DNA from: a virus
Length of the DNA: 43,316 nucleotides
Strand: one strand, 5' to 3'
IMG/VR virus record: IMGVR_UViG_3300016672_000064
Under the pieces are notes generated by a model, which made no database searches, was not told the origin of the DNA, and saw nothing but the letters and a program-made list of their open reading frames with translations. The position numbers and the translations under genes were made by a program. Shown here piece after piece: positions 4,866 to 28,257 of the stretch; position 1 is the stretch's first letter, and each line of letters starts with the position of its first letter.

Positions 4866-4906
4866 GGGCCGCAGTGTCCGGCCCGGTGCTCAGGTCAGGG
4901 GCACCC
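4866..4906 (-). promoter_or_regulatory. Late-operon element copy A (GGGTGCCCCTGAC-N16-ACACTGCGG-CCC-ATG)
   Basis: Box 1 at 4894-4906, box 2 at 4869-4877, ATG at 4865. Starts 3 nt after the stop of the giant gene. No Shine-Dalgarno. Confidence 0.6.
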
Positions 4907-4909
4907 CCG

Positions 4910-7900
4910 TCACGGTTCCTGGTAGCCGAAGGCCAGGGCCCTGATGGGGCTGTCGGTCTCGCCGTCGATCAGAGCCTGCACCCCGGTGAACGTACGGTTT
5001 GCCTGCGCGGCCGGCAGACCAAACGCCGAGCCCAGCACGTTGATCGCGCGTTTCCTGAAACCGTCGTCGAGCTCCCCCTGGCCGATCTCCTTGCCCAGGC
5101 CGGCGATGTCACTCAGCAGACGCAGGCCCGCCGGCCCCTGGTAATCCTGGGAATACTCCGACAGGCCCAGCGCCATCTTGGCCGCGCCCGCCACCTCGCG
5201 CACCCCGACCATGAGGCCGAACAGGTTGTCGAGCTGGGCTTCCAACAGCTTGCGCAGGATCTTGTCGAGGTCTTCCCAATCGCCCGAGTCACCGGGCGTC
5301 AGGGCATCCTTGAGCGCAACGGTCAGCACCGCGGGCACCGAGTACAGCAGCAGGTAATCCGCCACCAGCTTGGCCTTGCTTTTCTCGGTCATCGTCTGCG
5401 CCACCCCGATGTTCAAGGCTGTGTTCATGAACGAGTAGAAGACCGTGAACAGCTTTTGCGCAGGGCCGCCGCGCTCGATGGCCGACAGGTCTTTCATCTG
5501 CCCGCTGCCCTGGGCGTCGATCACAGCCTGGTCGGCCAGCTGCCCCGCGCGCTCGTCGCTGTTGCCCTCGCTGATCGCCTTCTCGTAGGCGCCCAGCCAG
5601 GTGGGCACGTCGACCACCATCTGCATGCGGGTCATCATGTAGAACGCGGCATTGCTCACCCAGGTGCGCACCGGGTGCTCACCTTCCACTTGGTTGCGCA
5701 GTTCGTTCAACTCGCGGAACCGGGTGCGCGCCCGACTGGCCATGAACTCGCTGCGCTCGTTGACCTCGCGCGCTTTGCCCAGCGGGTTGGTCAGGTACTG
5801 CGCCACGCCCCGCCCGATCCACTTGCCGCCCACCCGCACGACAGACTGCGTCAGGCCGATGGGCTGGATGGCCGCTGACATGACGTTGAAGCCCAGGCCT
5901 GCAATGCTGACCCCCTGGCGCAGGCGCCCCAGCATGCTGTCCAGTTCAGCCTGCAGGCCGGCCTCGCCGCGCGCCGTGTCTTCAATCCAGGTTTTCAGCT
6001 GGCGCACCGCCGCCGGCCCGTAGGTCTCGCGGATGGCGTTGTTGATCTTGTCGCTGCGCAGCAGCTTGTTGACGTCGATCAGCCACTCGTGGAACGCCAG
6101 GTCGTGGATCACGTCCTGCGTGCCCGAGTAGACGGCAGCCAGAGAGTAGAGCAGGGGGCGACCCTTGACGGCTTCGGCCCGCGACTTGGTGAACCCGCGC
6201 CGGGTGGTCGCGCTGGTGTAGGCCGCTTGCATCTGGCGCTTTGCGTCCTCGGCGTCGGCGTGCTGCTCGGCCCGGTTGTTGGCCAGGGGGTCGTACTTCA
6301 CGGGGTAGTACCCGCCGCGCAGCTGCACGGTCTGACCGTCCGCCGTGCGCACGCTCAGGGGCATCGGGTCAACCCATGCGGGTTCTTTCCCGTAGACGCG
6401 GCGCTCCTTGGCACCGATCAACGTCCGGTAGCTCTCGAAGTGATCCCAAACCGCTTGCACCGCTTGCCAGTCGGCGGCCGACAACGTGGCCAGCACGGGC
6501 TCGATCTGCTGCACGGTCCATCCCTCGCCGTCGAGCATGCGCTGGATGTTGCCCTCGTTGCCCATGTTCAAGGCCATGGCGAACACCTGTTCGCGGTTCA
6601 TCGAGCGGTTGATCGCCGCGAAGAATTGCCCCTTGCCGTCCATGCGCCCGGCCTTGATCACAGGGGCCAGGATGCCGTGCAGCCTCTCGGTGGCCTCGGC
6701 CCGCATGCGCGTTTCCATGTCGGCCGCCTCGTTGGCCGGCCGGATGAAATACTCCCACACCGGGCCGCCGTCCTTGCCGCCGTCGAACACGCGGGCCCAG
6801 GTGGCGGCCTTGATGTGGGCCGCGCCGAAGTCCTTGACCGCTTTGAACCACCGGGCCGTGCGAGTGGCAGGCGTGCGGGTGTCGGCGACTCGTCCGCCTG
6901 CGTTGGCCACGATGCTGTCGGCGATCTGGTCGCGCACCGCCTGGAAGTCGCGCAGCTGCTTGGCGGTCAGCAGGGTGTTTTTGACCCGACCCAGCTTCTC
7001 GATCTGGCGCACCGTGTCGCGCAGGCCGCGCAGCTCGTCGACCGTCATGTCCTTGTAGCTGGTGCGTCCGGCCTCGTCCAGCAGTTCGGGCGGGATGTCC
7101 GGCTCGAACCCCTGCTCGCGCTGCGACTCGACCCAAGCGGCCAGGGTCTTGCGCTTGGCAATCTGCTTGAGCGTGGTGCTGCCTGCCAAGTCGAAGCGCA
7201 CCAGCAACTGGGCGATCTGGTCGTAATAGTCGGCGTCCAGTCCCTTGGGCTTGTCAGCGAACCGGCGCAGGTAGGAAGTGATTTTCTCGACCTCCTCCTG
7301 CGCACGGGTCGCGGCGCGGGCGGCCTGCAGGTTGATGAGCTGGTGGCGCTTTTCGGCCAGGGCTTCCTCGGTGTTGCCCGCCAGCATGGCGCGCTCGGCG
7401 GCCTTGGCCGCGCGGGTCTCCGCCGTGGTGTACTGGCTGGGCCGCAGGTTCTTGACCTTGGTGCCGCCCACGATGCGCTCGGCCTGCTGCTTGGCCACCT
7501 GCGCCATGATGTCGACCGTGACCCGCTGGCCCTTGGCATTCACCTCGCCGGTGTCGCGGCGCACCTGCATGCCGCGCTCCAGTGCTGCGATCTCGGTCGA
7601 CAGGAACCGTGCGCGCACCTCGTTGTGGATCGCGCGGTCGACGGCTCGCTGCAGTCCCTCGGGCGTGCCCAGGTCGCCGAAGCGCTCCAGCATCCGCCGG
7701 CTCGTCATGCCCTCGATCACCGCCTGCGGTGGTTCGGCGTCCAGCAGGGCCTTGACCATCTGGTCGCCCGACTCCATGCGCACGGTCTCGGCGATCACGT
7801 CGGGGTGCAGGCCCCGGGCGCCCGAGGTCATGCGCAGCTTTTGCAGCTTGCGCCAGGGGGCATCCGGCTTGTTGCCGTAGCGGCGCTCCAGCTCGGCGGT

Positions 7901-10900
7901 GTCGAGCTTGCCGTAGAGGTTGCTGTCCGGCCCTAGGGCCTGCACCGGGGCGTCATCGTCGGGCCGCTTGTAGTCGTGCCACAGGGAGTAGATCGACTCG
8001 CCGCGCAGGGCGGCGTTGAACTTGTCCTCGAAGTCACGGGTGTCGTGGCGGCCGTCCTCGTCGGGAAGCAGGTAGCCGGCTTCCAGCAGGCGCTCGGCCA
8101 TGGCGTCGATGCTCAGGCCCCCATTGGCGCGCAGCACCGGCGTGCCGAAGACACCCGACTCGGGTTTCTCCTTGGGGTCGATCCCCCACACCGTGACTGC
8201 CTGGTCCTTGTTCAGGCCGCCCAGCTTGGCCACTGCGGTCAGCAGGTCGTCGTTGATGACGTCCAGCTCCTTGCTGGCCTTTGGCTTGTCGGGGGCTTGC
8301 GCGGTCTCGTCGGCCTCACCCTTGCCGGTCAGGAATTGCCAGGCCCGGTACACCGGCTGGCTCATGACCTCGCGGCGCACCTCGGCGCGCACCTCGCGGC
8401 GCAGGCTGTCGTGCAGCTTCTGCAGCTCCTTGAGCTTGCGATTCTTGGCGCCCTCCAGCCACTTCATGTCGCGCAGGCCCCGGGCCTGCAGCTCCTCGAT
8501 CGCTGCCTGGCTGGCATCGGTGGCCAGCGCGTGGTAGGCGCGGAAGTCGTCGAGCGACATGCCTGCGTCTTCGGCGGTCTTGAACAGCGGGCCCAGCCGG
8601 CGCGCGGCCTCGGCTTCCTGGATGGCCTGGGTGCTCGCCAGCATGCGATCCATGACACCGCGCACGTCGTCGGTGAGCTCGACGCGCAAGGCCTTGAGCT
8701 CCTTGTAGACCGACAGCAGCCACGCGCGGAACTTCTGGAACATGCTCTGCAGCTCCAGGCTGGGTGCGTTGCCCTCGAAGGCATAGGCCTCGAAGCCCCG
8801 GGCAAACTTCTCGTGGTGCGGGCGCTTGCCTTCCAGGCCGAGGGCAAACCACTCGGTCAGCGGGCTGGTGGTCTCGCTGCCTTTGATGCCGAACCAGTTG
8901 AGCAAGGTGGTGGCGTCGGTGACGATCGAGCGCTCGCCCTCGGTGACTTGGGCGCCAGCGTCGATCTCGGCCTGGATCCGCGCGGCCAGGTCCAGCTGCA
9001 CCTCCAGGAAGAAGTGCCCCGATTCATGGATGAACGTGCTGAGGTCGGCGCCTGCGAACAGGCTCAAGATCGCCGGGCTGCGGGTCAGGTCGTCGGGCAG
9101 GTTGATGCTGCCGCGGGCGGCGCCACCGTTAGCCGGTGCGGGAGCGTTGTGCATCTCCTTGCCGTCGAACACCACGATCACGTCACTGCTGGGGATGTCG
9201 GCAGTTTGCTCAGGTGGCGCGCTGGCGCGCTGCTCGTCTGTGAGCGTTGCACGCACCTGGGTGTTGCGCGCCTCTACCTCACCGGCCAGTTTCAGGTAGC
9301 GGTCGCGCATGACCCGGCCCGCGCTGGCCGGGTCGCTCAGACCATCCAGCGTGCTCCACAAGTCGATGACTCGGGCGCCCTCGGGCAAGGCCTGCAGATC
9401 CGCCTCGGCTTTCTCGGCGGCCACGGGGTCGAACTCTTTGCCGATTTCCATGGCAGTCTGGAACCCGGCCCACTTGTCGAAGGCTTCAGCCAGCGTCTGG
9501 TTGGCTTCGAGCAGGGTGCGCAGATCCGCGTTCACCTGGTCGCTGTACGTGCTGGGGCTGTCCTCGGGCGAACCGCCAGCGGCAAAGCCCTCGATTTCTT
9601 GAATGCCGTGCTGAATCTCGTGCAGCAGAACGGTTTTCAACCGGTCACCAAACCCCACGTCAGGCGAAACGCGGATCTCGTTGCGCGCAGGGCTGTACGC
9701 GGCATTCGCACCGTCCGGGAGCGACACCCCAGCCGCAGTGCCTTCGCTTTGCCGTGCCGCGACAAAAAACCCAATTTTTGCAATTGCTGGGTAGGCGGCG
9801 TACAGCGCGGGGTGGTGCAGAACATCACCAACGGTCAGCTCTGCCAGAACGTCCACGCCCCGGCGGGCGATCAATTCTCGCACCCCTTCCTCGCCAATTG
9901 TCGCAGCCTCGTGGTCGCTGATCTCAAAGCGCCATTTGCCATCAACACCTTGGTGCCAACCGGTCTCCCGGCGCACGGTCTCGGCGTCGTCGCCCTGTGT
10001 GATTCGCGCCTGTGCCGTGGCCAGTGCGTGGGTGTCCGCTGTTTGTGCGTTGGGACCTGCAAACTGGTTCAGTATGCTGGGGTTGGCGGGGTCGAACTCG
10101 CCCGAGTTGCCGGTGGCGGATTTGATTTGCTCCCCGCTGAACACCGTCAACTGGCTAAATGCCCCGTCGTCAGCTAAGGTCAGCAGTCCATCGCGGCCGG
10201 CGGCTTTTGCGTTCCGGGTGTCCGCACGTGAGAACTCACGGGATAAAACAGTTGCCGGGTCTTCAATTCGCAAATACACCGGCAGAACGTGCCCGCCGCC
10301 TTCACGGGCCCCGTCCAGCGCCGCAATGATGTTAGCGTAGTCCGGCGCGGCGGCGAAAAACACGCCTGTGGTCTTGCTGCGGGCAGCGTCAAAGGTGTCA
10401 AAGTCGGCAGTCGTCCCGTGATACACCACCAGCGGGCGCCCCTGGTCGTCGACCACCTTGGAGTCGCCAAACCACTTCCAGAAGTTGCGCACGCCTTCCT
10501 CGGTTTGCGCGATCGGTTGCCCGTTGCTGTTCGTGGTCGGGCGGTCCTTGCCGTCGATGTTCAGGGTGTCGGGCAGCACTTCGGTCTGCTGCAACACCTT
10601 GCCCGGCGCCTGCCGGTACATGCTTTCGCTGGTGCTGAAAGCGCGATTCTTGCCCTTGTTCTCGACGAAGCCCAGCGCCTTGTAGAACTTGATCAGTCGG
10701 GCCTTGTTGCCGCCGAAGTCTGCCGATGGTGACAGCACCACATGCTTGCCCGTGCGGTCGGCGTAATCCAGCAGCGCACGCATGGCTGCCGTGCCTGCGC
10801 CCTGACCGCGTGCACCCTCAGGCACCACGATCTTGGACACCGTGATGCGGTCGCTGCTTTCCTGCACGGCGCTGTCGATGCCGGCCGCTCCCCACTGCTC

Positions 10901-12637: not shown

Positions 12638-14774
12638 TGGTGCGTGGGGGGAGTCGGTTGCGGGCGCGGTAGAGGTTTTCCACCGCTGCATCGGTCACGG
12701 GTCGGCCTGCGCGGCGCAGCGCGGCCTCGATCTGCCTGCGCTCGGCGTCCGGCACGCGAACGGCGTCGCCCGGGGTGACCAAGCCCGCCGGGGTGTTGGT
12801 CGAGAAGCCCATGAAGCCGGAGACCTTGACGGGCTGGAACAGGGCCGCGGCTTCCTCGCGCAGTTCCTTGTCGCCCAGCTTCTTGCCGAGCACCGATTCG
12901 CGCGCGGCGATCCGCTCCTGGAATGCCGACATCAGCGTGCCGACCTTCTGCGCGCCGCTCTTGTCGCTGTCCTTGGGCGTCGGGTCGATGCCGTTCTCGC
13001 GCATCATCTGGTCCAGGATGCCCTTGGCGCTGACCAGGTGGGTGCGCTTTTCGGGGCTGTTGTTCAGGTCGGTCTGCTGGCCGGCCAGCTGCTTGAACTC
13101 AGCAGGCGCAAGTCGGTCGCGCAGCGCGCCCAGGTTCGTGCGGGCCAGCAGCTCGGGGTCGCTCGTGAGCCGGTAGTACAGGCCCCAATCGGTCGCCACG
13201 TTCTCGCCCTTGGCAATGCGACTGGCAAAACCCATCAGGTCGTCGACCTTGCCCGGCGGCAGGGCCGAGCGCACCGACGAGGGCAGATCGTGGAAGCGCC
13301 CGCCGTTGGCCAGCAACATGCGCTGCGCCTCGGCGACCAGGGCGTCCTGCCGCTCGGTGGTTGCCTTGTGGGCGACCTCCCACTGCTGGGTTGCATGGGT
13401 CACCGCAGCCTTGACCGTCATCGGGTCGGCGTCCGGGCCCAGGCGCGTGCGCACCGCTGCCTGCACGTCCATGAGGGTGGGCGCCGGCGGTGCACCGAAA
13501 CCCTCCTCCAACATCTTCATGTTTTTGGTGACGTAGGCCTGCGTTTCGTTCGGCATGAACGTGAGCCACGATGCACCCTCCGACCGACTGGCCTTCGCGC
13601 GCATCAGCGCATCGTCAAGCGCACCAGGCCCGGCGTTGTAGGCCGCCCAGGCTTTGGCCGGGTCACCGTCGTAGCGCTTGACCATGGCCTTGAGATAGTC
13701 CCGGCCCACACGGGCCAGCTCCTCGGGGCTGTCGTCACGGGCCGGGGTGACGCCGAACCCCGGGTCGCGCTGCGTGCCGGGCATCACCTGCATTTCCCCG
13801 CGCGCCCCCTTGGGGCTGGTCAGCAGCTGGCCGTCCTTGCCGTAGCGCCGGCCGCCGCTCTCTGATTGCATCGTGATGCCGACTAAGCGGTCCATGTCCG
13901 ACGGCTGTAGCTTGGGCGCGAGCTCGCCGACCACCTGGCTGCCGACCTGCACCGCCACGCGCGTGCGCATCTCCTTGTCGAGCACCGTGCGCACCGCCAG
14001 CTGGTCGTCGGCGGTCATCGAGCCCTTGTGCTTGTTCAGGTAGCCGCTGGCCAGCTCGATCTCGTCGTTTTCCAGCGCAGTCTTGATGGCCAGTCGGTGC
14101 GCTGCGCTCACTTCCTGGATCACCTGCTCGTCGGCCCAGGTCTGCGGCATGCCCAGCAGGCGGGCCTTTTCCTTGACCGCCGCGGTCACGGTCTGCACGC
14201 CCTGGGTCACCAGCCCGTCGTCGGCCAGGTCTTTGTAGTTCAGGGCAATCTGCCGCTTGGCCGCGCTGGCCGCCGCGTCGTAGGTCGCCGACTGATAGGT
14301 CTTGAACTCCTGTGCAGTGTGGCGCATCGCGTCGCCGCGCAGCTGCACGCGCATCTGGCCCGCCTGCTCGCGGAAGGCCTGCCGCTGGGCGTCGTTGCCC
14401 AGGCTCTTCTCGATCTCGCCGGCCTGCGCCTCGAACGCCTCATCGTACTCGTCGGCCAGCAGCTTGCCGCTGGGCCGCTGCAGGGCTTCGACCCCCTTGG
14501 CGCGCACCAGCCCTTGTTGCCCATATTGCAGATCGAACAGCCGCTCTTTGGCCTGGGTCACCGCGTCGATCACGCGCACCCGGTTGGCCTCCTGCTGCAT
14601 GTCAAGCGCGATGCGCCCGGCAGCCTGCCCCGCCTGCTCGACAGCCTGCCCCATCTGTGCGCCTTGGCGCGCGGCAATCGCCCCGGCGTCCGGCCCTTGC
14701 GGCGCCGTGAAACGCGCATTCGGCCCCGCCGACAGCGCCACGTCAAACGAATCACGACTCGGCACGCGCGGCAT
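12630..14774 (-). CDS. Internal virion protein with soluble lytic transglycosylase (SLT) domain
   Basis: QSESGG...GEMQVMPGT...AAYNAGPG (SLT motifs, about nt 13596-13898). Start at MPRVPSRD (ATG 14774, 1-nt TAATG overlap with the upstream stop). Confidence 0.8.
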   Translation of the reverse strand: MPRVPSRDSFDVALSAGPNARFTAPQGPDAGAIAARQGAQMGQAVEQAGQAAGRIALDMQQEANRVRVIDAVTQAKERLFDLQYGQQGLVRAKGVEALQRPSGKLLADEYDEAFEAQAGEIEKSLGNDAQRQAFREQAGQMRVQLRGDAMRHTAQEFKTYQSATYDAAASAAKRQIALNYKDLADDGLVTQGVQTVTAAVKEKARLLGMPQTWADEQVIQEVSAAHRLAIKTALENDEIELASGYLNKHKGSMTADDQLAVRTVLDKEMRTRVAVQVGSQVVGELAPKLQPSDMDRLVGITMQSESGGRRYGKDGQLLTSPKGARGEMQVMPGTQRDPGFGVTPARDDSPEELARVGRDYLKAMVKRYDGDPAKAWAAYNAGPGALDDALMRAKASRSEGASWLTFMPNETQAYVTKNMKMLEEGFGAPPAPTLMDVQAAVRTRLGPDADPMTVKAAVTHATQQWEVAHKATTERQDALVAEAQRMLLANGGRFHDLPSSVRSALPPGKVDDLMGFASRIAKGENVATDWGLYYRLTSDPELLARTNLGALRDRLAPAEFKQLAGQQTDLNNSPEKRTHLVSAKGILDQMMRENGIDPTPKDSDKSGAQKVGTLMSAFQERIAARESVLGKKLGDKELREEAAALFQPVKVSGFMGFSTNTPAGLVTPGDAVRVPDAERRQIEAALRRAGRPVTDAAVENLYRARNRLPPRTNG

Positions 14775-15382
14775 TACTTGCTCCCCCAAAACCCGCCCAG
14801 GGAGGCAGTGTTTGCTTTGAGCCCGCTGGTGTTGGGGCTGCTGTTTGCGGGGGGCTTGGTCGGGGTGTCGAAGGCGCCGGCCTTGTTCATCGAGTACCAA
14901 CTCGACGCGACCGACCCGGCGCTGCCGATGATCGACGTCAACGCCGCCCTGCCGGGCGAGATGGCGCGGGCTGCCGCCCGAGTGCTGCGGGCTTGCGACC
15001 GAATGTTCGTCGCCTCGATGCGGTGGCCCCAGGCCTGCGCGATGGCGTTCGCCTCGATCGCGTTGGTGTCGAACTCGCCCAGGTAGTCGGTGCCCGCCAG
15101 CACTTGCACGGCGCTGCCCTCGTCCAAGGCGATGCCGTTGGCACCCATGGCCGCGATCTGCCGGCCCTTGAGGCCCGCGGTCTGCATGCGGCTGCGCTGC
15201 ACTTCGCGGCGCCCGGACTCCAGGGTGCGCTCGGCGGTGCGCTCGGCCATGCGGGCGTTGATGTCCGCCATGTCGGCCTCGAAACCCAGGCGCGACTTTT
15301 CAGCCCTCGCACCGTAGTACGCGGACAAGGCACCGCCAACGGCGCCGCCGGCCTGCATCAACAATGGCAGAAACTGCAGCAT
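14774..15382 (-). CDS. Putative internal virion/ejection protein
   Basis: First gene after element B, upstream of the SLT protein and the giant protein. Hydrophobic Gly/Ala N-terminus MLQFLPLLMQAGGAVGGAL. Function inferred from position. Confidence 0.5.
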   Translation of the reverse strand: MLQFLPLLMQAGGAVGGALSAYYGARAEKSRLGFEADMADINARMAERTAERTLESGRREVQRSRMQTAGLKGRQIAAMGANGIALDEGSAVQVLAGTDYLGEFDTNAIEANAIAQAWGHRIEATNIRSQARSTRAAARAISPGRAALTSIIGSAGSVASSWYSMNKAGAFDTPTKPPANSSPNTSGLKANTASLGGFWGSK

Positions 15383-15423
15383 GCGCCGCAGTGTCCGCCC
15401 CGGTGCTCAGGTCAGGGGCACCC
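15383..15423 (-). promoter_or_regulatory. Late-operon element copy B
   Basis: Box 1 at 15411-15423 abuts the TAA of the upstream gene. Box 2 at 15386-15394. ATG at 15382. Confidence 0.6.
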
Positions 15424-18149: not shown

Positions 18150-18160
18150 GTCGAACCCTC

Positions 18161-18187
18161 AAAAAAGAGGGGGCGCGCGGCCCCCTC
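18161..18187 (-). terminator. Rho-independent terminator (minus strand) between head and tail genes
   Basis: Minus strand: GAGGGGGC-CGCGC-GCCCCCTC followed by TTTTTTG. Immediately followed by GAGGG and the ATG of the adaptor gene. Confidence 0.7.
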
Positions 18188-18206
18188 AACGCTCTGGCTG
18201 TGCGGG

Positions 18207-18416
18207 TCAGGCCAGGGTTTCGTCGCTGCCCTCGGGCTTGTCGCCCTCGGTCTGCGCACCCTTGCCCTTGGCCTTGCCTTTGGGCTCGATGGCTTCGATG
18301 GCGCCGTCGGGCTTGGGGACCGTGGTGTCGGGCAGGGTGACGACGTCGCCCTTGTGGTAGTGGCGGCACTCGCCGGAGTGCCACAGCTTGTCGGCGGTCA
18401 CGCGAAACTGCACCAT
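18207..18416 (-). CDS. Small hypothetical protein (69 aa, Lys/Gly/Glu-rich tail)
   Basis: ATG-initiated ORF in the head-gene series, between the cement protein gene and the terminator. Confidence 0.5.
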   Translation of the reverse strand: MVQFRVTADKLWHSGECRHYHKGDVVTLPDTTVPKPDGAIEAIEPKGKAKGKGAQTEGDKPEGSDETLA

Positions 18417-18430
18417 GGTTCAGTCTCCGA

Positions 18431-18883: not shown

Positions 18884-18901
18884 GGTGGGTTCTCCTTCCG
18901 A

Positions 18902-19921: not shown

Positions 19922-19933
19922 GGTGTGCTCCTA

Positions 19934-20557
19934 TCAGGGATTCATGTTCGGGTACAGGCGTTGCGCCACGCTGGCGTTGGGGGACTGGCCGGGCTGACGC
20001 CCGGTGATCACCTTGTCCTGCGAGATCGCGCGGCCTGCTTTGAGGAAGGCGCGAACGACCGCCGGGTGGTCGATCAGTCCACTGCCTTCCAGGAGGGTGT
20101 TCAGCTCGGCATCGCCGAACTTGGTGAGCGCTTCCTTTGCGGCCGCCAGGTTCTCGGGCTTGCCAAGCTCGGGGTCCGCTTGCAGCGCGGTCTGCCACTC
20201 CTTGCGCAATGCCGCGAGCTGCTCGGCTTGCTGCTGTGCAGCTGCCGGTGCGAGCTTGTCGAGCATGGCCTGCGCAGCCTCCTGCGTCATGTTCAGACCC
20301 TTGGCGAACTCACCGAAAGCCTTGAGACCGGCGTCGTCCATGTTTGCCCCGTCGGGCAGCGTGAACGGCGTGTAGGTCTCGGGCGCACCTTGAGGGGCGG
20401 CCGGCTCGGGGTTCGGGGCAGGGGCCTGCACGGGTGCAGGGTCAGCGGCAACAGGTGCCGGGGCCGGAGTGGCCGGGGTTTCAACGGGCGCAGCAGCGGG
20501 AGCCGGGGCAGAGGGGGTGGCGGCCGGTGCTGTCGGGGTTGCGGTGGTGTCGCTCAT
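19934..20557 (-). CDS. Scaffolding protein
   Basis: Start at MSDTTATPTAPAA (ATGA overlap at 20554-20557). Pro/Ala-rich N-terminus then helical region. Located directly upstream of the capsid gene. Confidence 0.65.
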   Translation of the reverse strand: MSDTTATPTAPAATPSAPAPAAAPVETPATPAPAPVAADPAPVQAPAPNPEPAAPQGAPETYTPFTLPDGANMDDAGLKAFGEFAKGLNMTQEAAQAMLDKLAPAAAQQQAEQLAALRKEWQTALQADPELGKPENLAAAKEALTKFGDAELNTLLEGSGLIDHPAVVRAFLKAGRAISQDKVITGRQPGQSPNASVAQRLYPNMNP

Positions 20558-20859
20558 TGGTTTTCGCCGACCATGGTCGGGTAGAGGGCCGGGGCTGCCG
20601 CGTGGACCAAAGCCATGAGTCGGTAGCCCTCCTGCTTGCGCCCTTCGGCGTGCGCCATTTCCATGGCGACATGCGAATAGGAGGTCTTGAAGACACCGGC
20701 CCGGGTCAGCTGACGCCACACAATGCGGCGCCCGCGCTTGCTGCCCATCAACCACTTGACGTCGTCGAGCTCCTGTTCGGCTGCCAGTTGGTCGCGTTGC
20801 GCTTGCGCAGCGCGTGCGGCTTCCTGGGCCTGAAGATCGGTCGGGTCATGTGGACGCAT
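20554..20859 (-). CDS. Bbp19-like small head-module protein
   Basis: 101 aa with ...KWLMGSKRGRRIVWRQLTRAGVF..S....EMAHAEGRKQEGYRL. First gene after element C. Confidence 0.5.
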   Translation of the reverse strand: MRPHDPTDLQAQEAARAAQAQRDQLAAEQELDDVKWLMGSKRGRRIVWRQLTRAGVFKTSYSHVAMEMAHAEGRKQEGYRLMALVHAAAPALYPTMVGENQ

Positions 20860-20899
20860 GGCCGCAATGTGCGGCCATGGTCTTGAGTCAGGGGCACCC
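20860..20899 (-). promoter_or_regulatory. Late-operon element copy C
   Basis: Box 1 at 20887-20899, box 2 at 20862-20870, ATG at 20859. Box 2 lies inside a perfect 23-bp palindrome at 20857-20879. Confidence 0.6.
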
Positions 20900-21009
20900 C
20901 TGCGACGTCAACGGAGGGAGAACGGCGGATCGCATCCGCGTGTGACAGGCTGGTCACGGACCGCCTGGGCCGCCGACATGGCCTGCGTGCTTGGGGCGGT
21001 CCTTGGGGC

Positions 21010-23262
21010 TTAGGCGCCACTAACGCGGTAAGCCGTAGTCGTGCTGGAGCGCCGCACACTGATGATCCCACCAGGGTTGCTGGCTGCTGTGCGCGTGATC
21101 GATGCAGTCGCACCGTTCATCGTGGCCGAACCGGACACCGCCAGAGTCACCTGGCCAGATGCCGGGATCAGCACATCAAATGATCCCACCGTACCGTCCA
21201 GCGTCAGGGTCAGGCCCGTTGTGGTCACATCCAGCGTGGGGATACCGGCAGGCGGCACATCGGCGTGGGTCAGCGTCTTGCTGGTCGTGATGGCAGGCAC
21301 AAGCAGTTGGCCGCACGACTCGATTTGCCAGTAGTTCGTGCTGGCTTGTGACCCATCCGTCCGCATGAAGCGCAGCACCGCGAACGACTTCGGTGCCAGC
21401 GTGATGCTGGTCCAGCCCGCCACCGCATTGATCGTCATTGACCCCTGGCAGTTGAGGGTCAGCGTGCCGTTGCCTGCGTTGTAGAAGTAGTACGCAATGC
21501 CTGGGTATCCAGCATTGCCCTGCGTCAGGTTGGCAGATGCCGCGCCGGTCGTGTTGTAAACCTGCACCTGAGCCCAATCGTTGCCAATGCCCGCGTTGGT
21601 CACGTTGCCGAGTTGCATGGCAAACAAACCAAGCTTGGTCGGGAACGCGGCACGCGAGTCATTGCTCGCGTGGATCGCCGTGTTCTTCTCGAGCCACATA
21701 GACATATTCGTCGTGGTCGCGAACCCGCCGACCGTCGGGTCATTGGTGATGTTCATGACCAGGCCGCTGGGCATGCCGTTGGTCAGGCGGAACGGGCGCT
21801 TGCCTTGGTAAGCAAGGCGCGAGCCGCCCTCCATGTCCAACATATCGCACGCACCGAGCGCGCGGATGTTGTTGTCGTATCCACCACCGCGAACAACGAA
21901 GGTTGCGTAATACCCAACGCCACCCAGCGCCGTGCTATCCCACGCACCAAAACCAGATTGCAGGTATGTGCTCGATGCGTTTTGCAGCACCGCCATGACC
22001 GAGCCAGTGTTTTCGATGTCGATTTCGGTGACCGTGCACGCGGTCAGGCCGCCAGAGGAACCACCGCCCTGGTCAATCGGGTCGTAGCCGACAAACAACC
22101 CAACGCCGCCGCGCCCGCCGAGCGTTGCATTGACTGTGCCTGTGCCCCCCGGCGTGATGATCGTGTCACCGCGCTTGTAGCTGATCGTGATGGTGCCGGG
22201 ACCAGTCGTTGCGCCGGGCGTTTGGGGGGTGACTGAGCGGATGAAATAGGTGTCGTCGTTGCGCAGCCCCGTGACGGTGCCCCACGACGTGCTGGCCTGC
22301 GAGTTGAACATGACACAGTTGTTGACCCGGTAGTTCGACACATCGGCCACCGGAATCTGTGCGTTGCCTGCCGTGACAGTCACTGTCTCTGTGACCAACA
22401 CGCCCTTCATCATCACGGCGCAGCCCTTGACGTGCGTGTCATTGAGCGATGCATTCGCACCGCGACACAGCAACTCAACACCGCAGGCGAGCCGGTACTC
22501 GGACTCGCATGTCACTTGCTCGAATTTGATTTGGCCGTGGTTCCAATAGGCCGAGCCGCCAGTGATGTTGGAGCCCGACGAAACAATGCTGAGGCCACCG
22601 CCGCGATATGCAAACGCATTGAGGTGCTCGCCGCGCATCACATGGCAGTTTTCAAACCAAAAGCCACGGTCCAGCGCACCCACGGATGCCACATTCTCCA
22701 CAACGGCATTCTCGACGCCCTCGATGTACCGGGCGCCGAGCTTGATGCCAAAAAGACCCCCCTCGACCTGCAAATGGCGAACCGAGAAACCGCGAATGGA
22801 TGACGCCTTGAACTCGCCACCCGTCGGGAACGGCGTTGCCCGGTCCTCCCAGTTGTAGCCAATGACCGGCTTGGTCGTGGACGTGCTGCGAATGATGGTG
22901 CCCGCATCCACGACATCGCCGAACATCTTGACGCCCATGCCCGTGCCACGCAGCTCCACATAGGGCCGCGCTTGGATCATGTTGTCACCGATGTTGTAGA
23001 TCACGCCCTTGAGTTGCACGATGCCGCCACCAGCAGCCCACGCCATTGACAGGGCAGTCTCGATGCCGAGGTAGTCATCGGTCAGCGGTGTGAACACAGC
23101 CCCACCGCCAGAGAGGGGGTTGATCTGCCCGTCCGTGTCCCGCGACGCATACCCGTCGGCGATCCACATGGCCGCGACCTCGCGCGGCACGTCCAGGTTC
23201 TCGCCGGGAAAGCGCCGCGCGCCGCTGGCGTCGTCGAAGGTCTTGAGGATGTTGACGAGCAT
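21010..23262 (-). CDS. Tailspike/depolymerase with right-handed beta-helix (pectate-lyase-like) domain
   Basis: 750 aa. AAGGGIVQLKGVIYNIGDNMIQARPYVELRGTGMG resembles a Pectate_lyase_3 N-cap. The rest is a long Gly/Asn/Thr/Val-rich repetitive beta sequence. Visibly lower GC than its neighbours. Confidence 0.7.
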   Translation of the reverse strand: MLVNILKTFDDASGARRFPGENLDVPREVAAMWIADGYASRDTDGQINPLSGGGAVFTPLTDDYLGIETALSMAWAAGGGIVQLKGVIYNIGDNMIQARPYVELRGTGMGVKMFGDVVDAGTIIRSTSTTKPVIGYNWEDRATPFPTGGEFKASSIRGFSVRHLQVEGGLFGIKLGARYIEGVENAVVENVASVGALDRGFWFENCHVMRGEHLNAFAYRGGGLSIVSSGSNITGGSAYWNHGQIKFEQVTCESEYRLACGVELLCRGANASLNDTHVKGCAVMMKGVLVTETVTVTAGNAQIPVADVSNYRVNNCVMFNSQASTSWGTVTGLRNDDTYFIRSVTPQTPGATTGPGTITISYKRGDTIITPGGTGTVNATLGGRGGVGLFVGYDPIDQGGGSSGGLTACTVTEIDIENTGSVMAVLQNASSTYLQSGFGAWDSTALGGVGYYATFVVRGGGYDNNIRALGACDMLDMEGGSRLAYQGKRPFRLTNGMPSGLVMNITNDPTVGGFATTTNMSMWLEKNTAIHASNDSRAAFPTKLGLFAMQLGNVTNAGIGNDWAQVQVYNTTGAASANLTQGNAGYPGIAYYFYNAGNGTLTLNCQGSMTINAVAGWTSITLAPKSFAVLRFMRTDGSQASTNYWQIESCGQLLVPAITTSKTLTHADVPPAGIPTLDVTTTGLTLTLDGTVGSFDVLIPASGQVTLAVSGSATMNGATASITRTAASNPGGIISVRRSSTTTAYRVSGA

Positions 23263-23265
23263 GGT

Positions 23266-24930
23266 TCAAACTCCCGAGGGGATCGAGTACCCCGAAAACT
23301 GGTTCATGAGATCGCCGCCCACCGAACCGGCGCCGCTGGGAGACGTGGCCAGGTTCTTGACGGTCTGTGCGTTGAGTGCGGCCTGTTCGGCCTGGGCCTG
23401 CTGCTGCGCGGCATCAGCGCGGGCCTTGCGGATCAGGGCCACCTTGTCGCCGGCCACGATGAACTCGGGCGACACGCCCGTCATGTCGGCGTATTCGTCG
23501 GCCCACGTGTCCGCGTCGAACTTGTCGAGCACGTCGGGCTTGAGCTGGGCCACCACGCCGAGGTTGGCGACAAAGCGGTCCACCGCATTGGTCGACACCG
23601 CGCGCTGGGCCTGCGCCAACATGCTGACGAATTCGACGTTCAGGTCTTGGTCGGCCAGGCTGTCAGGCGGGGGAGGCAGCACGCCGGCGCGCAGCAGCTC
23701 GTCGAAAGTGTTGTTGACCGCAGGCACGTGGGTCTCGTGCGTCACACGCTCCAGCACCGGGCCCAGCATGAGCATCTTTTCTTCGTACCGCTCGGCCACC
23801 TCGGTGGCGGTCATCTGCGTGCGATCGCTCGACGCCAGCATCAGGAACAGGTTGGTGTGGAAGGACTCGCGGATGCGCTGGCGCACGTCCTGCAGGTCGC
23901 CCAGCAGGAAGTCCAGCCGCAGCGGCACCTCGAAAGCGGTGCGGATCGCGTTCTGCGGGCTGTCGACGAAAGACACGCCGCCGGGCAGCAAGTCGGCACC
24001 ACCGGCGCGCAGCGACACCGGAACCTGCACGGGCGGGTCAGCCTGGAAGCTGATCGCCTTGCCCTTCATCATCTGTTCATGTTGCAGCTGGCGCACCGAG
24101 CCCAAGGCCAGCATGCCCGGCCCGTAGCCATAGACATCGCCGCCGCGGGTGTGCCACCGTGCGCCCCAGCCGGGGAAGGACTTGAACCCGCTCACGCGCA
24201 GGTACTTGTCCTGGTTGCCCCCGAGCTCGAAGTAGACCGACTCGAAAGGCATGTTCTTGCCGTCGAGCTTGGTGCGGTCGCGGTCCTCACGGGGCCGAAT
24301 GGCGTGCACCACCTCAACCCAGCGCTGACCGTGGTTGTTGCGGTAGGACTGTTGCACCGAGGGGCTGCAGTTTCCCAGCCCAAACTCGCGCACCAGCTGG
24401 TTGACCGTGGCCTCGAAGTGGCGAAACAGGGTGTCCACCTCGCCCTTCCAGTTGGTGGCCATGGCGTACTCGCCCACGGTCAGCGATTGGAAGTGCGTGA
24501 CGGTCTGGAAGTCGGGCACCTGCAGGCACGCCCACGAACCAAACCCGCCCAGCTCCTCATAGCCCATGTGCATGGCCCGGTAGAAGTTGGACTTGTGGAA
24601 GACCCGCAGCATGATCTTGGTGACCTGATCCAGCCACACCTTGGCGTCGTGCTGCTTGGCCAGGTCGGGGTCGGCCGTGGTCAGTTTGAACCACGGGCGC
24701 GCCGGGCTGTTCATGCCTGCTTGCATGCCGGCAGCCAGGGTTTCAAGGGCCTGCGTGCCGGTCTCGTCCAGGATGTTGTTGTGCCGCTTCTCGCCCCGGT
24801 TGCGGTCCTGCGCGAAGAAGCGCCCCGAGCGGGGCAGCAGGTGGTCGCTGATGTCCCGCCAGTGCGAGACCCAGCTGGCGCGCTCGGTCTTGAGCGCTTC
24901 CCAGACCTGCAGGTGCTCGTGGTGGCGCAT
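23266..24930 (-). CDS. Portal (head-to-tail connector) protein
   Basis: About 554 aa downstream of the terminase genes. ATG at 24930 (TGATG junction); the TTG at 24933 in the track is rejected. Confidence 0.8.
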   Translation of the reverse strand: MRHHEHLQVWEALKTERASWVSHWRDISDHLLPRSGRFFAQDRNRGEKRHNNILDETGTQALETLAAGMQAGMNSPARPWFKLTTADPDLAKQHDAKVWLDQVTKIMLRVFHKSNFYRAMHMGYEELGGFGSWACLQVPDFQTVTHFQSLTVGEYAMATNWKGEVDTLFRHFEATVNQLVREFGLGNCSPSVQQSYRNNHGQRWVEVVHAIRPREDRDRTKLDGKNMPFESVYFELGGNQDKYLRVSGFKSFPGWGARWHTRGGDVYGYGPGMLALGSVRQLQHEQMMKGKAISFQADPPVQVPVSLRAGGADLLPGGVSFVDSPQNAIRTAFEVPLRLDFLLGDLQDVRQRIRESFHTNLFLMLASSDRTQMTATEVAERYEEKMLMLGPVLERVTHETHVPAVNNTFDELLRAGVLPPPPDSLADQDLNVEFVSMLAQAQRAVSTNAVDRFVANLGVVAQLKPDVLDKFDADTWADEYADMTGVSPEFIVAGDKVALIRKARADAAQQQAQAEQAALNAQTVKNLATSPSGAGSVGGDLMNQFSGYSIPSGV

Positions 24931-25259
24931 CAACCCCCCAGCAGCTGGTTGCGGCCCAGCGTGAGGTTGTTGGTGGCCGCGCCGCCCGGCCCGGTCAGCA
25001 TCGTGCTGCCCACGCCCTTGGTCATGGCGTTGCCGGCCAGCAGGGCGGCCAAGTCAGGGGCTCGGCGGTTTGCGCGATTGGTAGCCTGGTCGGCCAGGTC
25101 TGCCGCCTTGCGTGCGTCTTCGCGGGCTTGCGCCTGCGTGCGCTCCTGCAGCTCAAGCGCTTGGCGGCTTTCTTCCGCCTGGTTGCCCAGCAGTCCGCCG
25201 AGCAGTCCGCCAACAAGGCCGCCAAGCAAACCCTTGCCCTTGAAAAGTCCGCCGAACAT
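24930..25259 (-). CDS. Gly-rich small virion-module protein
   Basis: MFGGLFKGKGLLGGLVGGLLGGLLG then a charged helix. GGAGG SD is supplied by the upstream mini-ORF. Confidence 0.55.
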   Translation of the reverse strand: MFGGLFKGKGLLGGLVGGLLGGLLGNQAEESRQALELQERTQAQAREDARKAADLADQATNRANRRAPDLAALLAGNAMTKGVGSTMLTGPGGAATNNLTLGRNQLLGG

Positions 25260-25291
25260 GGTCAGGCCTCCGACATTGCGATGTCTTGCAT

Positions 25292-25332
25292 GGACCGCAA
25301 TGTCGGGCCGGGGGCGTGAGTCAGGGGCACCC
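25292..25332 (-). promoter_or_regulatory. Late-operon element copy D (feeds a 9-codon mini-ORF at 25262-25291)
   Basis: Box 1 at 25320-25332 starts 2 nt after the TerL stop. Box 2 at 25295-25303. ATG at 25291 opens MQDIAMSEA*. Confidence 0.6.
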
Positions 25333-25334
25333 CG

Positions 25335-26882
25335 TCAACGGGCGTAGGGGTCGAAGCGCCGGCGTGCCTGCGCGATCTGGCTGACCGCATCGCCCGCGGC
25401 TTGGTGGAACTCGGGCACCGGCTCGGCGAACGTGAGGGCCAGGGCGTCAGCATCGTCCGGACTGGCCAGGCCGCGCTTTTTCATGTCCTCTTTGCGCTCC
25501 AGCTGGATCTGGTCCTTGAGCGTGAACTGGTACTCGACGCTGGTCAGGTCGGTGGCCAGGGTCTCGTCCTTGTCGATGCAGCCCACCGCCAGCCAGTCGC
25601 GCATCGCGCCCCAGATCTCGGCCCGGCGGTTGAGGTACTTGCGCGGGTCGCGGGCTGCCGCCCCGAACTGCACCTCGATGACGTCGACGCCGATCTGACG
25701 CAGCCGGTCCACCACGCCGCCGCCCACGCCGCCGCCGTCGACGAACACCACGACACGCAGGCCCATGCCGGTGAGGTAGGTGACATGCTCGGACACCCGG
25801 GCCGCCAGCTGCATGGTGTCGAGGCCCTGGAACCGCTTGGGAGCGATGCTGCGGGCATCCCGGCCCAGACGGGTGCGGATCACGCTGGCGTCGTCACCAA
25901 AGCGCGCCACGTCAACGCCCACGCATGCCGTGCGGCCTGATGTGTTGGCGGCCTCGGCATCGCGGCGCATGGCCTCGTCGACCAGGCTGCGCGCGATGAA
26001 CTGCGTGCTGCTGGCGTTGGGGAAGACACCGCGCACGCGCACCTTGACGAAATCGGAGTCTTCACCGTAGTCGTCGACCCACTCCTGCAGCAGCTTCTTG
26101 TTGGTGATCGCCACGTCGCGGCTGTCGATCTGGCGATTGATCCAGCGGTGGCGCTGCTTGCCGAAGCACTCGGCGAAGGCGCCGGTGTTGCGCGTCGGGT
26201 TGCCAAACACGAAGTGCATGGGCTCGCCATCGGTCTTGCCTCCCTCGGCCACCTCCCATATCTTGTCGGGGATGGCTGATGCCTCGTCGAACAAGTACCA
26301 CGGGGTGCTGCTGGCCGCGTGCAGGCCCGCAAACGACTCGCTGTTCTCCTCGCGGCAGGTCTGCGCGTCCACGCGCCAGCTGTCGGGAAATTGCTTGTGC
26401 GTCAGGCGCATGGCGCCCTTGCCGGTGTTGACGTTGAACCAGTGTCGGGTGATGCACTTGGCGCCCCACGACGCCACGCCGGCCCAGGTCTTGGATTCCA
26501 GCTGCGGCGCCGTGTTGGCGGTCACCACGCCCTTGGAGTGGGGGCGGGTGCTCACGATCCACCAGGTCAGCCATGCGGACATGGCCGACTTGCCGATCCC
26601 GTGGCCCGAGCTGACCGCGTACTGGATGGGCGCGACTGCGTTGACCCCATCAAACCCGCGCTCGCGGACCTGGCGGCCAATGTCCTCAAGCATCTGACAG
26701 GCCCAAAGGTCGGGGCCAAAGTCGCAGCCGTACTGCATCCGGTACTCGGCGGGCAGGCGAACCACCTGCAGCGCCGGATCGGTGTCCCAGGGGAAGGCGA
26801 ACATTACGAACGACAACGGATCGTCGTAGAACCTGGCCATGTCCTCGGCCAGCTGCTTGTCGAGCGTGTCAGCCACCGGCAC
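25335..26882 (-). CDS. terL: Terminase large subunit
   Basis: Walker A SGHGIGKS and a C-terminal nuclease-like region. The start is uncertain: GTG at 26882 (overlaps terS) or ATG at 26840. Confidence 0.85.
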   Translation of the reverse strand: MPVADTLDKQLAEDMARFYDDPLSFVMFAFPWDTDPALQVVRLPAEYRMQYGCDFGPDLWACQMLEDIGRQVRERGFDGVNAVAPIQYAVSSGHGIGKSAMSAWLTWWIVSTRPHSKGVVTANTAPQLESKTWAGVASWGAKCITRHWFNVNTGKGAMRLTHKQFPDSWRVDAQTCREENSESFAGLHAASSTPWYLFDEASAIPDKIWEVAEGGKTDGEPMHFVFGNPTRNTGAFAECFGKQRHRWINRQIDSRDVAITNKKLLQEWVDDYGEDSDFVKVRVRGVFPNASSTQFIARSLVDEAMRRDAEAANTSGRTACVGVDVARFGDDASVIRTRLGRDARSIAPKRFQGLDTMQLAARVSEHVTYLTGMGLRVVVFVDGGGVGGGVVDRLRQIGVDVIEVQFGAAARDPRKYLNRRAEIWGAMRDWLAVGCIDKDETLATDLTSVEYQFTLKDQIQLERKEDMKKRGLASPDDADALALTFAEPVPEFHQAAGDAVSQIAQARRRFDPYAR

Positions 26883-27597
26883 GCTTCCGTGCGGCCGCGA
26901 TCATGGCGGCCACGTTCTCGGTGACGTCGTGCTCGACCTTGTCCTTGAACATGGCCAGATGTCGCCCGATGAGCTCGATGGCCTTGTCCTGGTCGCGCAT
27001 GAGCACCTGCACGCCGTCCTTGGTCTGCTTCACGCCGGCGTAAAGGCGACGAGCGGGGCCGGACAGGTGGCGCGTGTCGGCTAGGTGGATGCGTTCGACA
27101 CCCTCGCCAAAGCACTCAGGACAGTCCTCATGGGGCTCGCGGCGCGGGTCGTAGCCCACACCCCCAGCCTCGTCGAAAACGCGCGGCTGGTGGCGTTCTG
27201 GGTCTTTGCGCTGGCGCTCCAGCTCGGCAGCCTCGTGGGCCGCTCGATCGCGCTCCATTTCGGCCGGGGTCCGCTGGTAGCCGAACAGGTTGCCATGGCA
27301 GTGCCGGCAGCACCCGCGGCGGTGCTGGATGAGCTCGTTGGGGTCGGCGATCGCCAGCTCGACCAGATGGCGCAGCACCTCGTTGGCTTCGAGCTTGAGC
27401 TCGCGGGCCCGCTCGTCCTGCAAGGCCTTGACCGCAGCCTGCACGTCAGGGTCTTGAAGCAGGCGCCACGCCTCGACATCCGCCTGCGATCGAGCGTAGC
27501 CCGCGCGGATGGCGGCCTGCGTCCCGTTCAAGTCCTTGAGGTACTCAAACACGAAGCGCTGACGACGAGGGGGCAGTGCACTTGCAAAACCTTGCAT
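26869..27597 (-). CDS. terS: Terminase small subunit (Terminase_2 family) with Cys-rich insert
   Basis: RQRFVFEYLKDLNGTQAAIRAGYARSQADVEAWRLL plus CCRHCHGN...CPECFGEG. ATG at 27597 follows element E (alternative GTG at 27606). Confidence 0.85.
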   Translation of the reverse strand: MQGFASALPPRRQRFVFEYLKDLNGTQAAIRAGYARSQADVEAWRLLQDPDVQAAVKALQDERARELKLEANEVLRHLVELAIADPNELIQHRRGCCRHCHGNLFGYQRTPAEMERDRAAHEAAELERQRKDPERHQPRVFDEAGGVGYDPRREPHEDCPECFGEGVERIHLADTRHLSGPARRLYAGVKQTKDGVQVLMRDQDKAIELIGRHLAMFKDKVEHDVTENVAAMIAAARKRAGG

Positions 27598-27638
27598 GCC
27601 CCGCACTGTGCCCAGCGGTCAAGGAGTCAGGGGCACGG
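27598..27638 (-). promoter_or_regulatory. Late-operon element copy E (first late promoter candidate)
   Basis: Box 1 (cCGTGCCCCTGAC) at 27626-27638, box 2 (ACAGTGCGG) at 27601-27609. Follows the terminator directly. Confidence 0.6.
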
Positions 27639-27642
27639 GCGA

Positions 27643-28254: not shown

Positions 28255-28257
28255 CGG

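Follow-up and report, generated by a model that had tools for sequence, protein, structure and literature searches.

How do podophages of the Bordetella phage BPP-1 type switch on their late genes? We found no description of this in the literature, the 2004 BPP-1 genome paper lying outside that search. The question is raised afresh by IMG/VR virus record IMGVR_UViG_3300016672_000064, a stretch of 43,316 nucleotides (nt) that was analyzed at its full length and is called the window here. In its late region the same bipartite element, made up of two conserved boxes (box 1 and box 2) and a spacer between them, occurs five times on the minus strand, each time just before an ATG. A preliminary description had read these elements as a phage-specific class of late promoters that depend on an auxiliary factor and produce leaderless mRNAs. 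That core reading gains support from conservation of the element across a whole phage group, from an A and a T at fixed positions downstream of box 1, and from start codons that lie 5-7 nt after this T in 31 of 49 copies, all of which can be read from sequence. We consider it probable, if short of assured, that the five elements are late promoters used by host RNA polymerase with its primary (sigma70-type) sigma factor, that box 1 is read by a phage factor, and that the first genes behind the promoters are leaderless.

Five copies of one element in the late region

The pattern GTGCCCCTGAC-N16-ACANTGCGG has exactly five exact matches in the window, all on the minus strand (copies A to E, Table 1). 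No match appeared in 100 dinucleotide-preserving shuffles, and allowing up to three mismatches yielded no further copies in the window (0.05 expected). As first described, the spacer is 16 nt long in all five, and box 2 ends 3 nt before the ATG in A, B, D and E and 2 nt before it in C. Each copy lies inside a gap of about 45-55 nt, and at copies A to D the stop codon of the upstream gene is found 2-8 nt 5' of box 1. A GGAG-type Shine-Dalgarno sequence is missing at all five ATGs behind the elements but present at most internal late genes (GGAGG, AGGAG, AAGGAGA, GGAGA or GAGGG), a contrast that the preliminary description had drawn correctly.

Four of the five ATGs are the first codon of long open reading frames (ORFs) with a high GC content at third codon positions (GC3), as judged by frame-specific GC3 and family scans, and the N-termini of the four gene products align to homologues from residue 1. 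The elements had been said to open late genes throughout; this holds for A (tail fibre), B (internal virion protein), C (Bbp19-like protein) and E (terS), but the ATG of D opens only a 9-codon ORF. This mini-ORF is a deletion scar of a 152-aa gene of relatives, whose first and last codons it retains, and the Shine-Dalgarno sequence of the gene that follows is kept as well. The orthologous D copy adjoins the ATG of a 151-152-aa gene in L001, L006 and L039 (contigs and loci are cited by their identifiers in our set). The proposal that an element heads every late unit proved too broad, as no copy precedes the lysis genes or the tail genes beyond a strong terminator at 18167-18187. Our data instead support regarding the elements as internal promoters of one long late region.

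The exact motif recurs in seven short viral contigs that are 77-98% identical to the window at the nucleotide level. These close relatives retain both boxes and the 16-nt length of the spacer but vary in spacer sequence and in the 2-3 nt that precede the ATG. L003 and L007 have an unchanged D copy and an E copy with one base different in box 1, and L039 carries a terS of a different type, yet has identical boxes at the E, D and C positions. A promoter at E is further supported by its place directly after an intrinsic terminator, in the window (Table 1) as well as in L039, whose terminator is a compensatory stem variant (CCCGC-TTCG-GCGGG followed by a T-run).

Alignments of the window with related contigs lose homology at promoter copies or no more than about 45 nt from them (27636, 20902-20942 and 25283), and a 750-aa ORF between the portal gene and C (21010-23262) is swapped out in several relatives; the repeated promoters coincide with boundaries of mosaic modules. 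Promoter C has a 10-bp palindrome (CCATGGCCGC / GCGGCCATGG; 20860-20884) that flanks its -10 hexamer and includes the ATG. L002 and L004 keep the palindrome intact, and L005 has it with one mismatch.

The architecture is shared by distant relatives

The same architecture is present in 14 genomes or loci. In each of these we collected every match to its own box-1 consensus on both strands, imposing no condition on the downstream sequence, which gave 49 copies. All 49 lie on the late-gene strand and all have an A at +27 and a T at +31 counted from the start of box 1, with no other downstream column conserved; a hexamer nAnnnT accordingly stands exactly 15 nt downstream of box 1 in 49/49. A looser, 8-mer definition of box 1 admitted many chance matches and was dropped for counts; the A and T columns were still the sole standouts.

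A start codon follows the hexamer T by 5-7 nt in 31 copies (28 ATG and 3 GTG), often preceded by C. The other 18 have leaders, most with a clear Shine-Dalgarno sequence and sometimes before a gene that abuts the promoter elsewhere, and some copies stand 20-40 nt before starts led by a Shine-Dalgarno sequence. The tail fibre gene provides an example: its ATG abuts the promoter in the window (product beginning MSIST), and it has a leader with a Shine-Dalgarno sequence in Limnohabitans phage DC33 and Manatee Spring phage MW202722 (MTISS in both) and in phage zth2-2. As the same element occurs with an abutting start or with a leader, it can be uncoupled from the start codon, and it lies at a place where transcription would be expected to begin.

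Across the group, box 1 follows the consensus G-GT[G/A/T]C-n-C-n-T-[G/A]-n-C. It is near-identical within a genome and differs across lineages (GTGCCCCTGAC, GTGCCCGTGCC, GTGCACATGCC, GTGCACCTAAC, GTGCACGTACC, GTGCGCGTAGC, GTTCGCGTACC and GTACCCGTATC), as expected for a phage-encoded reading head. BPP-1 itself has GTGCCCGTGCC-N16 followed by AAACTGCGC, ACTGTGCGC or AGAGTGCGC, then gc or ggc and the ATG, before terS, bbp24 and bbp19, and a fourth box-1 copy upstream of its tail fibre gene bbp9. The lower-GC phages DC33, zth2-2 and MW202722 have GGTACCCGTA[T/A][C/G], 15 nt and TAnnnT, the hexamers being TAGATT, TAAATT, TATTCT, TAATCT, TACTGT and TAGTCT. Orthologues of copy C precede the Bbp19 homologue in BPP-1, DC33, zth2-2, MW202722, L018, L021, L023, L009 and L039.

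Some individual copies differ in form or setting. In L042 (10238-10277 and 15203-15240) box 1 is 2 nt shorter (GGTGCATAC) and its 3' half stands at an unchanged distance from the hexamer, a hint that the register is set by the promoter-proximal half of box 1. Promoter copies in BPP-1 (L035, 26255-26318) and L044 (16033-16110) fall inside genes as annotated, in the 5' end of bbp26 (terS) and of the Bbp19 homologue, respectively; the true starts of these two genes are probably the abutting ATGs further downstream. At two further copies, one before the tail fibre gene of BPP-1 (6126-6186) and one before the internal-virion-protein gene of L038 (24445-24502), the spacer and its flanks form a strong hairpin followed by a T-run, a terminator overlapping the promoter.

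A probable sigma70-type -10 hexamer with box 1 at the -35 position

A-N3-T is the recognition signature of region 2 of primary-type sigma factors. Given that the A and T are invariant at a fixed distance and that lower-GC relatives have TAnnnT, box 2 is best read as a sigma70-type -10 element (A-11...T-7, with nAnnnT in 5/5 window copies) plus a lineage-specific GC-rich discriminator (TGCGG in the window), an assignment that the alignments support. The earlier view of box 2 as -10-like stands in this respect; its apparent exoticism does not, as it resolves into a sigma70-type -10 and a GC discriminator. Box 1, at about -38 to -28 and with a G at -39, would take the place of the -35 hexamer. 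As noted before, it looks nothing like TTGACA: the corresponding position, inside box 1, is held by CCCCTG, and there is no -35 hexamer. CTGAC at the end of box 1 was rejected as a degenerate -35, since only a 14-nt spacer would be left. A consensus scan predicted early promoters with -10 hexamers of the same style as the late elements, but with a normal -35 (TTGACA-16-CACAAT at 28750-28777 and TTGACG-17-TACATT at 28254-28226); it found no sigma70 consensus promoter between 2000 and 21000 in the late region.

Other polymerase systems matched less well. A sigma54 promoter might be seen in the TTGC or CTGC of box 2 and the GGCAC in the reverse complement of box 1, but the GG-N10-GC register (TGGCAC-N5-TTGC in the sigma54 consensus) is not kept: the GG nearest to the TGC of box 2 lies at N10 (A, B), N9 (C, D) or N6-7 (E), and with the variable spacer it shifts further in orthologues. 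A sigma54 start, about 12 nt after the GC, would also land inside the ORF. Scans of window ORFs against Pfam, PHROG and NCBIfam found no RNA polymerase gene and no sigma region 2 protein among the ORFs covered, the 756-aa and 2593-aa late ORFs being assigned by tblastn to BPP-1 instead; the non-structural ORFs scanned had other functions or no match. A promoter for an extracytoplasmic function (ECF) sigma was rejected, as no sigma region 2 domain was detected and the sole sigma-like match is a region-4/GerE-type helix-turn-helix (HTH) absent from relatives; moreover, the box motifs are unlike the ECF consensus (-35 GGAAC-like, -10 CGTC-like). A promoter for a T7-like single-subunit RNA polymerase was likewise set aside: no polymerase gene was identified among the ORFs scanned, and the element is bipartite with a free 15-16-nt spacer, where a T7-like promoter would be one unbroken conserved block of about 20 bp over the start point. 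The related Jessavirus phages have also been reported to lack an RNA polymerase (PMC11053796).

In the window, an ATG 6-7 nt after the hexamer T, the lack of a Shine-Dalgarno sequence and N-termini that align from residue 1 together make leaderless mRNAs the predicted product. Such mRNAs are known from Burkholderiales: in C. metallidurans they account for 4.67% of primary start sites (PMC7563307).

A small HTH protein is the candidate reader of box 1

When all window genes were compared with the relatives by tblastn, a gene for a 79-aa three-helix HTH protein (Table 1) was the only non-structural gene common to all of them. The relatives have it immediately upstream of terS, with the first promoter copy abutted or overlapped by the gene's 3' end; in the window it is separated from promoter E by an insertion (27637-28279). 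Since this protein is common to all relatives, is encoded next to the first promoter and has a recognition helix that varies with box 1, it is most probably the reader of box 1 and the late activator.

Several helix-box pairs illustrate the co-variation. Recognition helix SKSQAR[R/N]IC pairs with GTGC[C/A]CCT and SKSQAGNIC with GTGCACAT; helices with [T/A/L][I/V] pair with ..CGT.., and [V/I][Q/K]KIC pairs with GTAC. BPP-1 and L044, a phage in a Pseudomonadaceae metagenome-assembled genome, share the identical box GTGCCCGTGCC, and their helices (SKGAIAKICRYERR, SKGAVAKICRYERR) are nearly alike. A prophage of a different type in Azonexus (L045) also encodes a member of the HTH family and has GTGCNCGTACY boxes with nAnnnT 15 nt downstream. 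Three such boxes stand in tandem at 8440-8500 of L045, upstream of the operon that holds its HTH-family gene.

The structural model of the 79-aa protein, with a predicted confidence (pLDDT) of 69, shows a three-helix HTH with short flanking strands. Its fold matches are generic (resolvase, homeodomain, GerE-like), with no specific PDB relative by sequence or fold. No named family was assigned by Pfam (only a sub-threshold HTH_7), NCBIfam (nothing) or the annotated PHROG families, where there is only a weak match to the C-terminal domain of an 'endonuclease' family. The BPP-1 homologue, bbp27, owes its label 'endonuclease' solely to a weak match to that C-terminal HTH domain. The family is large, with 3,820 clusters at E<=0.001, mostly stand-alone proteins of 75-120 aa that are named 'hypothetical' or misnamed.

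Between the HTH gene and a divergent gene (28785-29198), positions 28555-28731 of the window hold at least seven copies of TTGAAGCA(G) in both orientations, one pair of which forms a perfect 14-nt inverted repeat, and a comparable cluster, of GTTTGCCTC repeats, is found at this position in BPP-1. The TTGAAGCA cluster is probably an operator region for expression of the putative late activator.

A model for late transcription and its rivals

We infer the following course of events. The 79-aa HTH protein would be expressed from an early or middle unit, bind box 1 at the five late promoters and recruit or stabilize polymerase in place of -35 recognition. Host holoenzyme would use the weak -10 hexamer nACAnT together with the discriminator GCGG, and transcription would start 6-8 nt after the hexamer T, either at the A of the ATG or 1 nt ahead of it. 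In each unit, translation of the first cistron would proceed from a leaderless mRNA and that of the downstream cistrons via their Shine-Dalgarno sequences.

Several observations weigh against this model. The window hexamers GACACT, CACATT, GACATT and CACAGT have no T-12, and for E. coli they would count as weak. Three copies in Caulobacter phage Jess A (GTGCGCATGAT-N15 followed by TAAAAA, GATACA or TAAATA) keep the A but not the T at +31; these hexamers may resemble the different -10 consensus of Caulobacter sigma73, which would in turn suit reading by a host sigma. Leaderless GTG is poorly translated in E. coli, and three copies of relatives would start in this way. The co-variation of recognition helix and box 1, seen in about 15 pairs, is confounded by shared ancestry. 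We can point to no direct precedent for an asymmetric 11-13-bp site read by a 79-aa single HTH that also touches polymerase, and the window's GerE/LuxR-type HTH protein (encoded at 42149-42352) could be a local activator.

The most serious rival holds that one alternative sigma factor, whether phage-encoded, host ECF-like or otherwise non-primary, reads both boxes, region 4 contacting box 1 and region 2 contacting box 2, with no activator involved. A bipartite element with rigid spacing and box 1 in the -35 position is what such a factor would require, and the conserved HTH protein could be a region-4-like module itself. A further candidate, the 67-aa product of 42149-42352, matches Sigma70_r4_2 weakly as well as PHROG 3282 'sigma factor', but fits GerE/LuxR (E 1e-15) far better than sigma region 4, and is absent from relatives. 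The scanned ORFs offer no region 2 partner, the 79-aa HTH gene being the sole shared non-structural gene. Furthermore, A-N3-T or TAnnnT fits primary-type region 2, from which ECF -10 motifs differ, and the predicted early promoters of the phage share the same -10 style. We therefore regard an alternative sigma as unlikely. The same promoters might instead be served by another activator, either this GerE/LuxR-type protein or the ribbon-helix-helix (RHH)-like product of 27686-27862, the two candidates of the preliminary description. Each is a small protein predicted to bind DNA, with its gene outside the late region, and GerE of B. subtilis is a stand-alone late-gene regulator. However, neither has a detectable homologue in any relative searched, including those that share the promoter architecture; tblastn matches to the GerE-like protein come only from unrelated phages, and L003 and L007 keep the motif, at D unchanged and at E with its single altered base, while lacking the whole block (27637-28279) in which the RHH-like ORF resides. 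The usual targets of GerE/LuxR proteins are also dyad-symmetric sites, bound by dimers; box 1 is asymmetric, with no dyad symmetry. An activator of either kind is in our estimate quite improbable.

Two other explanations would remove activation from box 1 altogether. Were box 1 a repressor operator that silences late genes in the lysogen, like the stoperators of mycobacteriophage L5, one would expect a temperate phage with asymmetric sites of about 13 bp in one orientation in short gaps. The window, with its integrase and repressor-like genes, has all of these, and a site over the -35 is well placed for repression. Yet without a -35 or an extended -10 the weak hexamers would hardly work alone, leaving little to repress, and an exact 15-nt distance between box 1 and hexamer in 49/49 copies fits a partner of polymerase rather than a roadblock. 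Box 1 moreover moves with the structural module and the HTH gene, while the replication and immunity modules differ between relatives, and we hold a role as operator to be very unlikely. Alternatively, the element might act in RNA, as a processing site, translational enhancer or nut/put-like antitermination signal within one long late transcript. No terminators lie upstream of A to D, so that read-through RNA would carry the elements; the bipartite layout recalls boxA/boxB, and C as well as some BPP-1 and MW202722 copies can form hairpins. The five window copies share no common fold, however: fold-energy z-scores against shuffled sequences were +0.15, -0.75, +0.52 and -1.06, only that of C being significant (-4.6). 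The spacer varies freely with no compensatory pattern, the conserved downstream positions are exactly A-N3-T, and copies both abut start codons and precede Shine-Dalgarno-led starts by 20-40 nt. An RNA element thus appears the most far-fetched of these explanations, and activation of host sigma70 holoenzyme through box 1 is the reading we retain.

Comparison with known phage promoters

The elements belong to neither the T4 middle, the Mu nor the RinA-type class of promoters, differing in box sequence, spacing, symmetry and protein family. The middle promoters of phage T4, which work by MotA/AsiA sigma appropriation, are alike in that a host-type -10 is kept and the -35 is replaced by an asymmetric phage box of about 10 bp, at a fixed distance and in many copies, with a phage protein as its reader (PMC2988021). 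The T4 MotA box, (a/t)(a/t)(a/t)TGCTTtA, lies 12±1 bp from the -10 and is centred at -30 (PMC2988021), whereas the box of the window group, GT[G/A/T]CnCnT[G/A]nC, lies exactly 15 bp away and is centred near -33, with a 79-aa single HTH as candidate reader. The T4 promoters are also middle rather than late and not leaderless, while those described here are late and predicted to be leaderless. No MotA or AsiA match was found in the Pfam, PHROG and NCBIfam scans of non-structural ORFs, which covered all but a few small ORFs.

[quoted passage not shown] The Mu late promoters number four to five, comparable to the five in the window (PMC2582627). In contrast, the C dimer binds a 16-bp imperfect dyad centred at -43.5 and the Mu transcripts have leaders; box 1 is asymmetric and about 10 bp nearer to the start. 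Family scans of the window ORFs gave no match to the Mor/C family. The RinA, LtrC and ArpU activators resemble the present case in that a small activator gene lies directly upstream of terS with its target promoter in between (PMC3152322, PMC3753634). They differ in having a single late promoter per genome, other protein families and Gram-positive hosts, with neither a multi-copy bipartite box nor a leaderless design described.

The SAS and ESAS motifs (start-associated sequences and their extended form) of cluster K mycobacteriophages and the stoperators of cluster A are likewise short, asymmetric and of one orientation, in small gaps before start codons. In SAS the Shine-Dalgarno sequence forms part of the motif, for which a role in translation is assumed; stoperators are bound by repressor. 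The elements described here differ from both in that they have no Shine-Dalgarno sequence and carry a -10-like A-N3-T at a fixed distance. As for leaderless starts, lambda PRM-cI is alike in its predicted transcript start at the A of the AUG, and the repressor-like gene of the window appears to be built likewise. Proteobacterial leaderless mRNAs are usually those of low-expression regulators; here, unlike in those cases, the design heads several structural-gene units of a phage group.

Activator-dependent phage late promoters with no -35 are thus a kind already known; what is unusual is the systematic use of predicted leaderless starts in a proteobacterial phage group, together with a widespread and uncharacterised HTH family. 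We found no earlier description of these promoters or box sequences in a relevant context in the literature, the 2004 J Bacteriol paper on the BPP-1 genome lying outside that search. A paper on diversity-generating retroelements and one on Caulobacter phages (PMC11053796) are silent on these promoters.

The phage and the features of its genome

The window is a temperate podophage genome of the BPP-1 (Rauchvirus-like) type, complete and circularly permuted. Its gene order matches that of Bordetella phage BPP-1, and the portal proteins of the two share 56% identity. A helicase gene that is 54-78% identical to BPP-1 bbp47 runs across both window ends (42349-43316 and 1-457), and the window therefore represents a circularly permuted complete genome. 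The replication module encodes a DUF2800 nuclease, an Enc34-type single-stranded DNA-binding protein, a family A DNA polymerase and a primase-polymerase/helicase. Late ORFs of 756 aa and 2593 aa were placed as virion proteins via tblastn to BPP-1 and not via the family scan. The closest prophages in genome collections come from Burkholderiales metagenome-assembled genomes, Rhodoferax and Mycoavidus. Megablast of positions 20000-28000 found no near-identical GenBank phage, and a scan of genome contigs with the portal protein found only relatives at about 50% identity. The portal of epsilon15 is 43% identical, and a family profile did not find an HTH homologue in that phage.

The block that separates the HTH gene from promoter E is absent from L003 and L007 and resembles a moron-like insertion. 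Upstream of the repressor-like gene lies TTGACT-N18-CAGACT-N8-ATG (32195-32260), with no Shine-Dalgarno sequence, and this gene may be leaderless as is lambda cI when expressed from PRM. Table 1 collects the features on which the analysis draws.

Table 1 Late promoters, associated genes and other features of the 43,316-nt window
Feature	Position	Strand	Details
Exact matches to the element	4869-4904, 15386-15421, 20862-20897, 25295-25330, 27601-27636	-	pattern GTGCCCCTGAC-N16-ACANTGCGG
Late promoter A (predicted)	4863-4906	-	before tail fibre gene; box 1 4904-4894, hexamer GACACT 4878-4873, ATG 4865-4863
Late promoter B (predicted)	15380-15423	-	before internal-virion-protein genes; box 1 15421-15411, hexamer GACACT 15395-15390, ATG 15382-15380
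Late promoter C (predicted)	20857-20899	-	before Bbp19-like, protease/scaffold and major capsid genes; box 1 20897-20887, hexamer CACATT 20871-20866, ATG 20859-20857
Late promoter D (predicted)	25289-25332	-	after terL; box 1 25330-25320, hexamer GACATT 25304-25299, ATG 25291-25289
Late promoter E (predicted)	27595-27638	-	before terS; box 1 27636-27626, hexamer CACAGT 27610-27605, discriminator GCGG, ATG 27597-27595
Tail fibre gene, behind A	3699-4865	-	
Internal virion protein gene, behind B	14774-15382	-	
Bbp19-like gene, behind C	20554-20859	-	101 aa
Mini-ORF from the ATG of D	25262-25291	-	9 codons, MQDIAMSEA*; stop 2 nt before the Shine-Dalgarno-led ATG of a 109-aa gene (24930-25259)
terS, behind E	26869-27597	-	
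Intrinsic terminator (read from sequence)	27644-27666	-	CCCGCC..GGCGGG + T6; ends the upstream small-gene unit directly before promoter E
Insertion block, about 640 bp	27637-28279		between HTH gene and promoter E; TTGACG-17-TACATT promoter, 80-aa ORF, 58-aa RHH-like ORF with RPRGRPP motif, (CCTGA)x4 repeat, terminator
Three-helix HTH gene, 79 aa	28258-28496	-	ORF 28258-28518, likely start ATG at 28496
Integrase gene	921-2120		
Repressor-like gene, 75 aa	31984-32211	-	

Implications for BPP-1-like phages

Diversity-generating retroelements have BPP-1 as their model phage, and prophages related to BPP-1 are common in Burkholderiales and other Proteobacteria. If the proposed model is true, late promoters would be defined for the whole BPP-1-like group, a testable activator candidate (bbp27 in BPP-1) would be named, and several gene starts would be corrected. 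It would also mean that a proteobacterial phage group routinely opens structural-gene units with leaderless mRNAs, and routine leaderless starts are, to our knowledge, unusual outside Actinobacteria, Deinococcus and archaea. The matched variants of box and recognition helix would then form a natural series on how a small HTH replaces -35 recognition, and they could supply orthogonal promoter-activator pairs.

More speculatively, and with rather more doubt than conviction, one may see in the HTH family a new class of phage late-transcription factor in which a single small domain takes the -35 position of host sigma70 holoenzyme, 'sigma appropriation' by one protein. The virion modules of BPP-1-like phages in beta-, gamma- and alpha-proteobacteria would then be expressed from sets of leaderless mRNAs, with box 1 and the recognition helix re-tuned together in each lineage.

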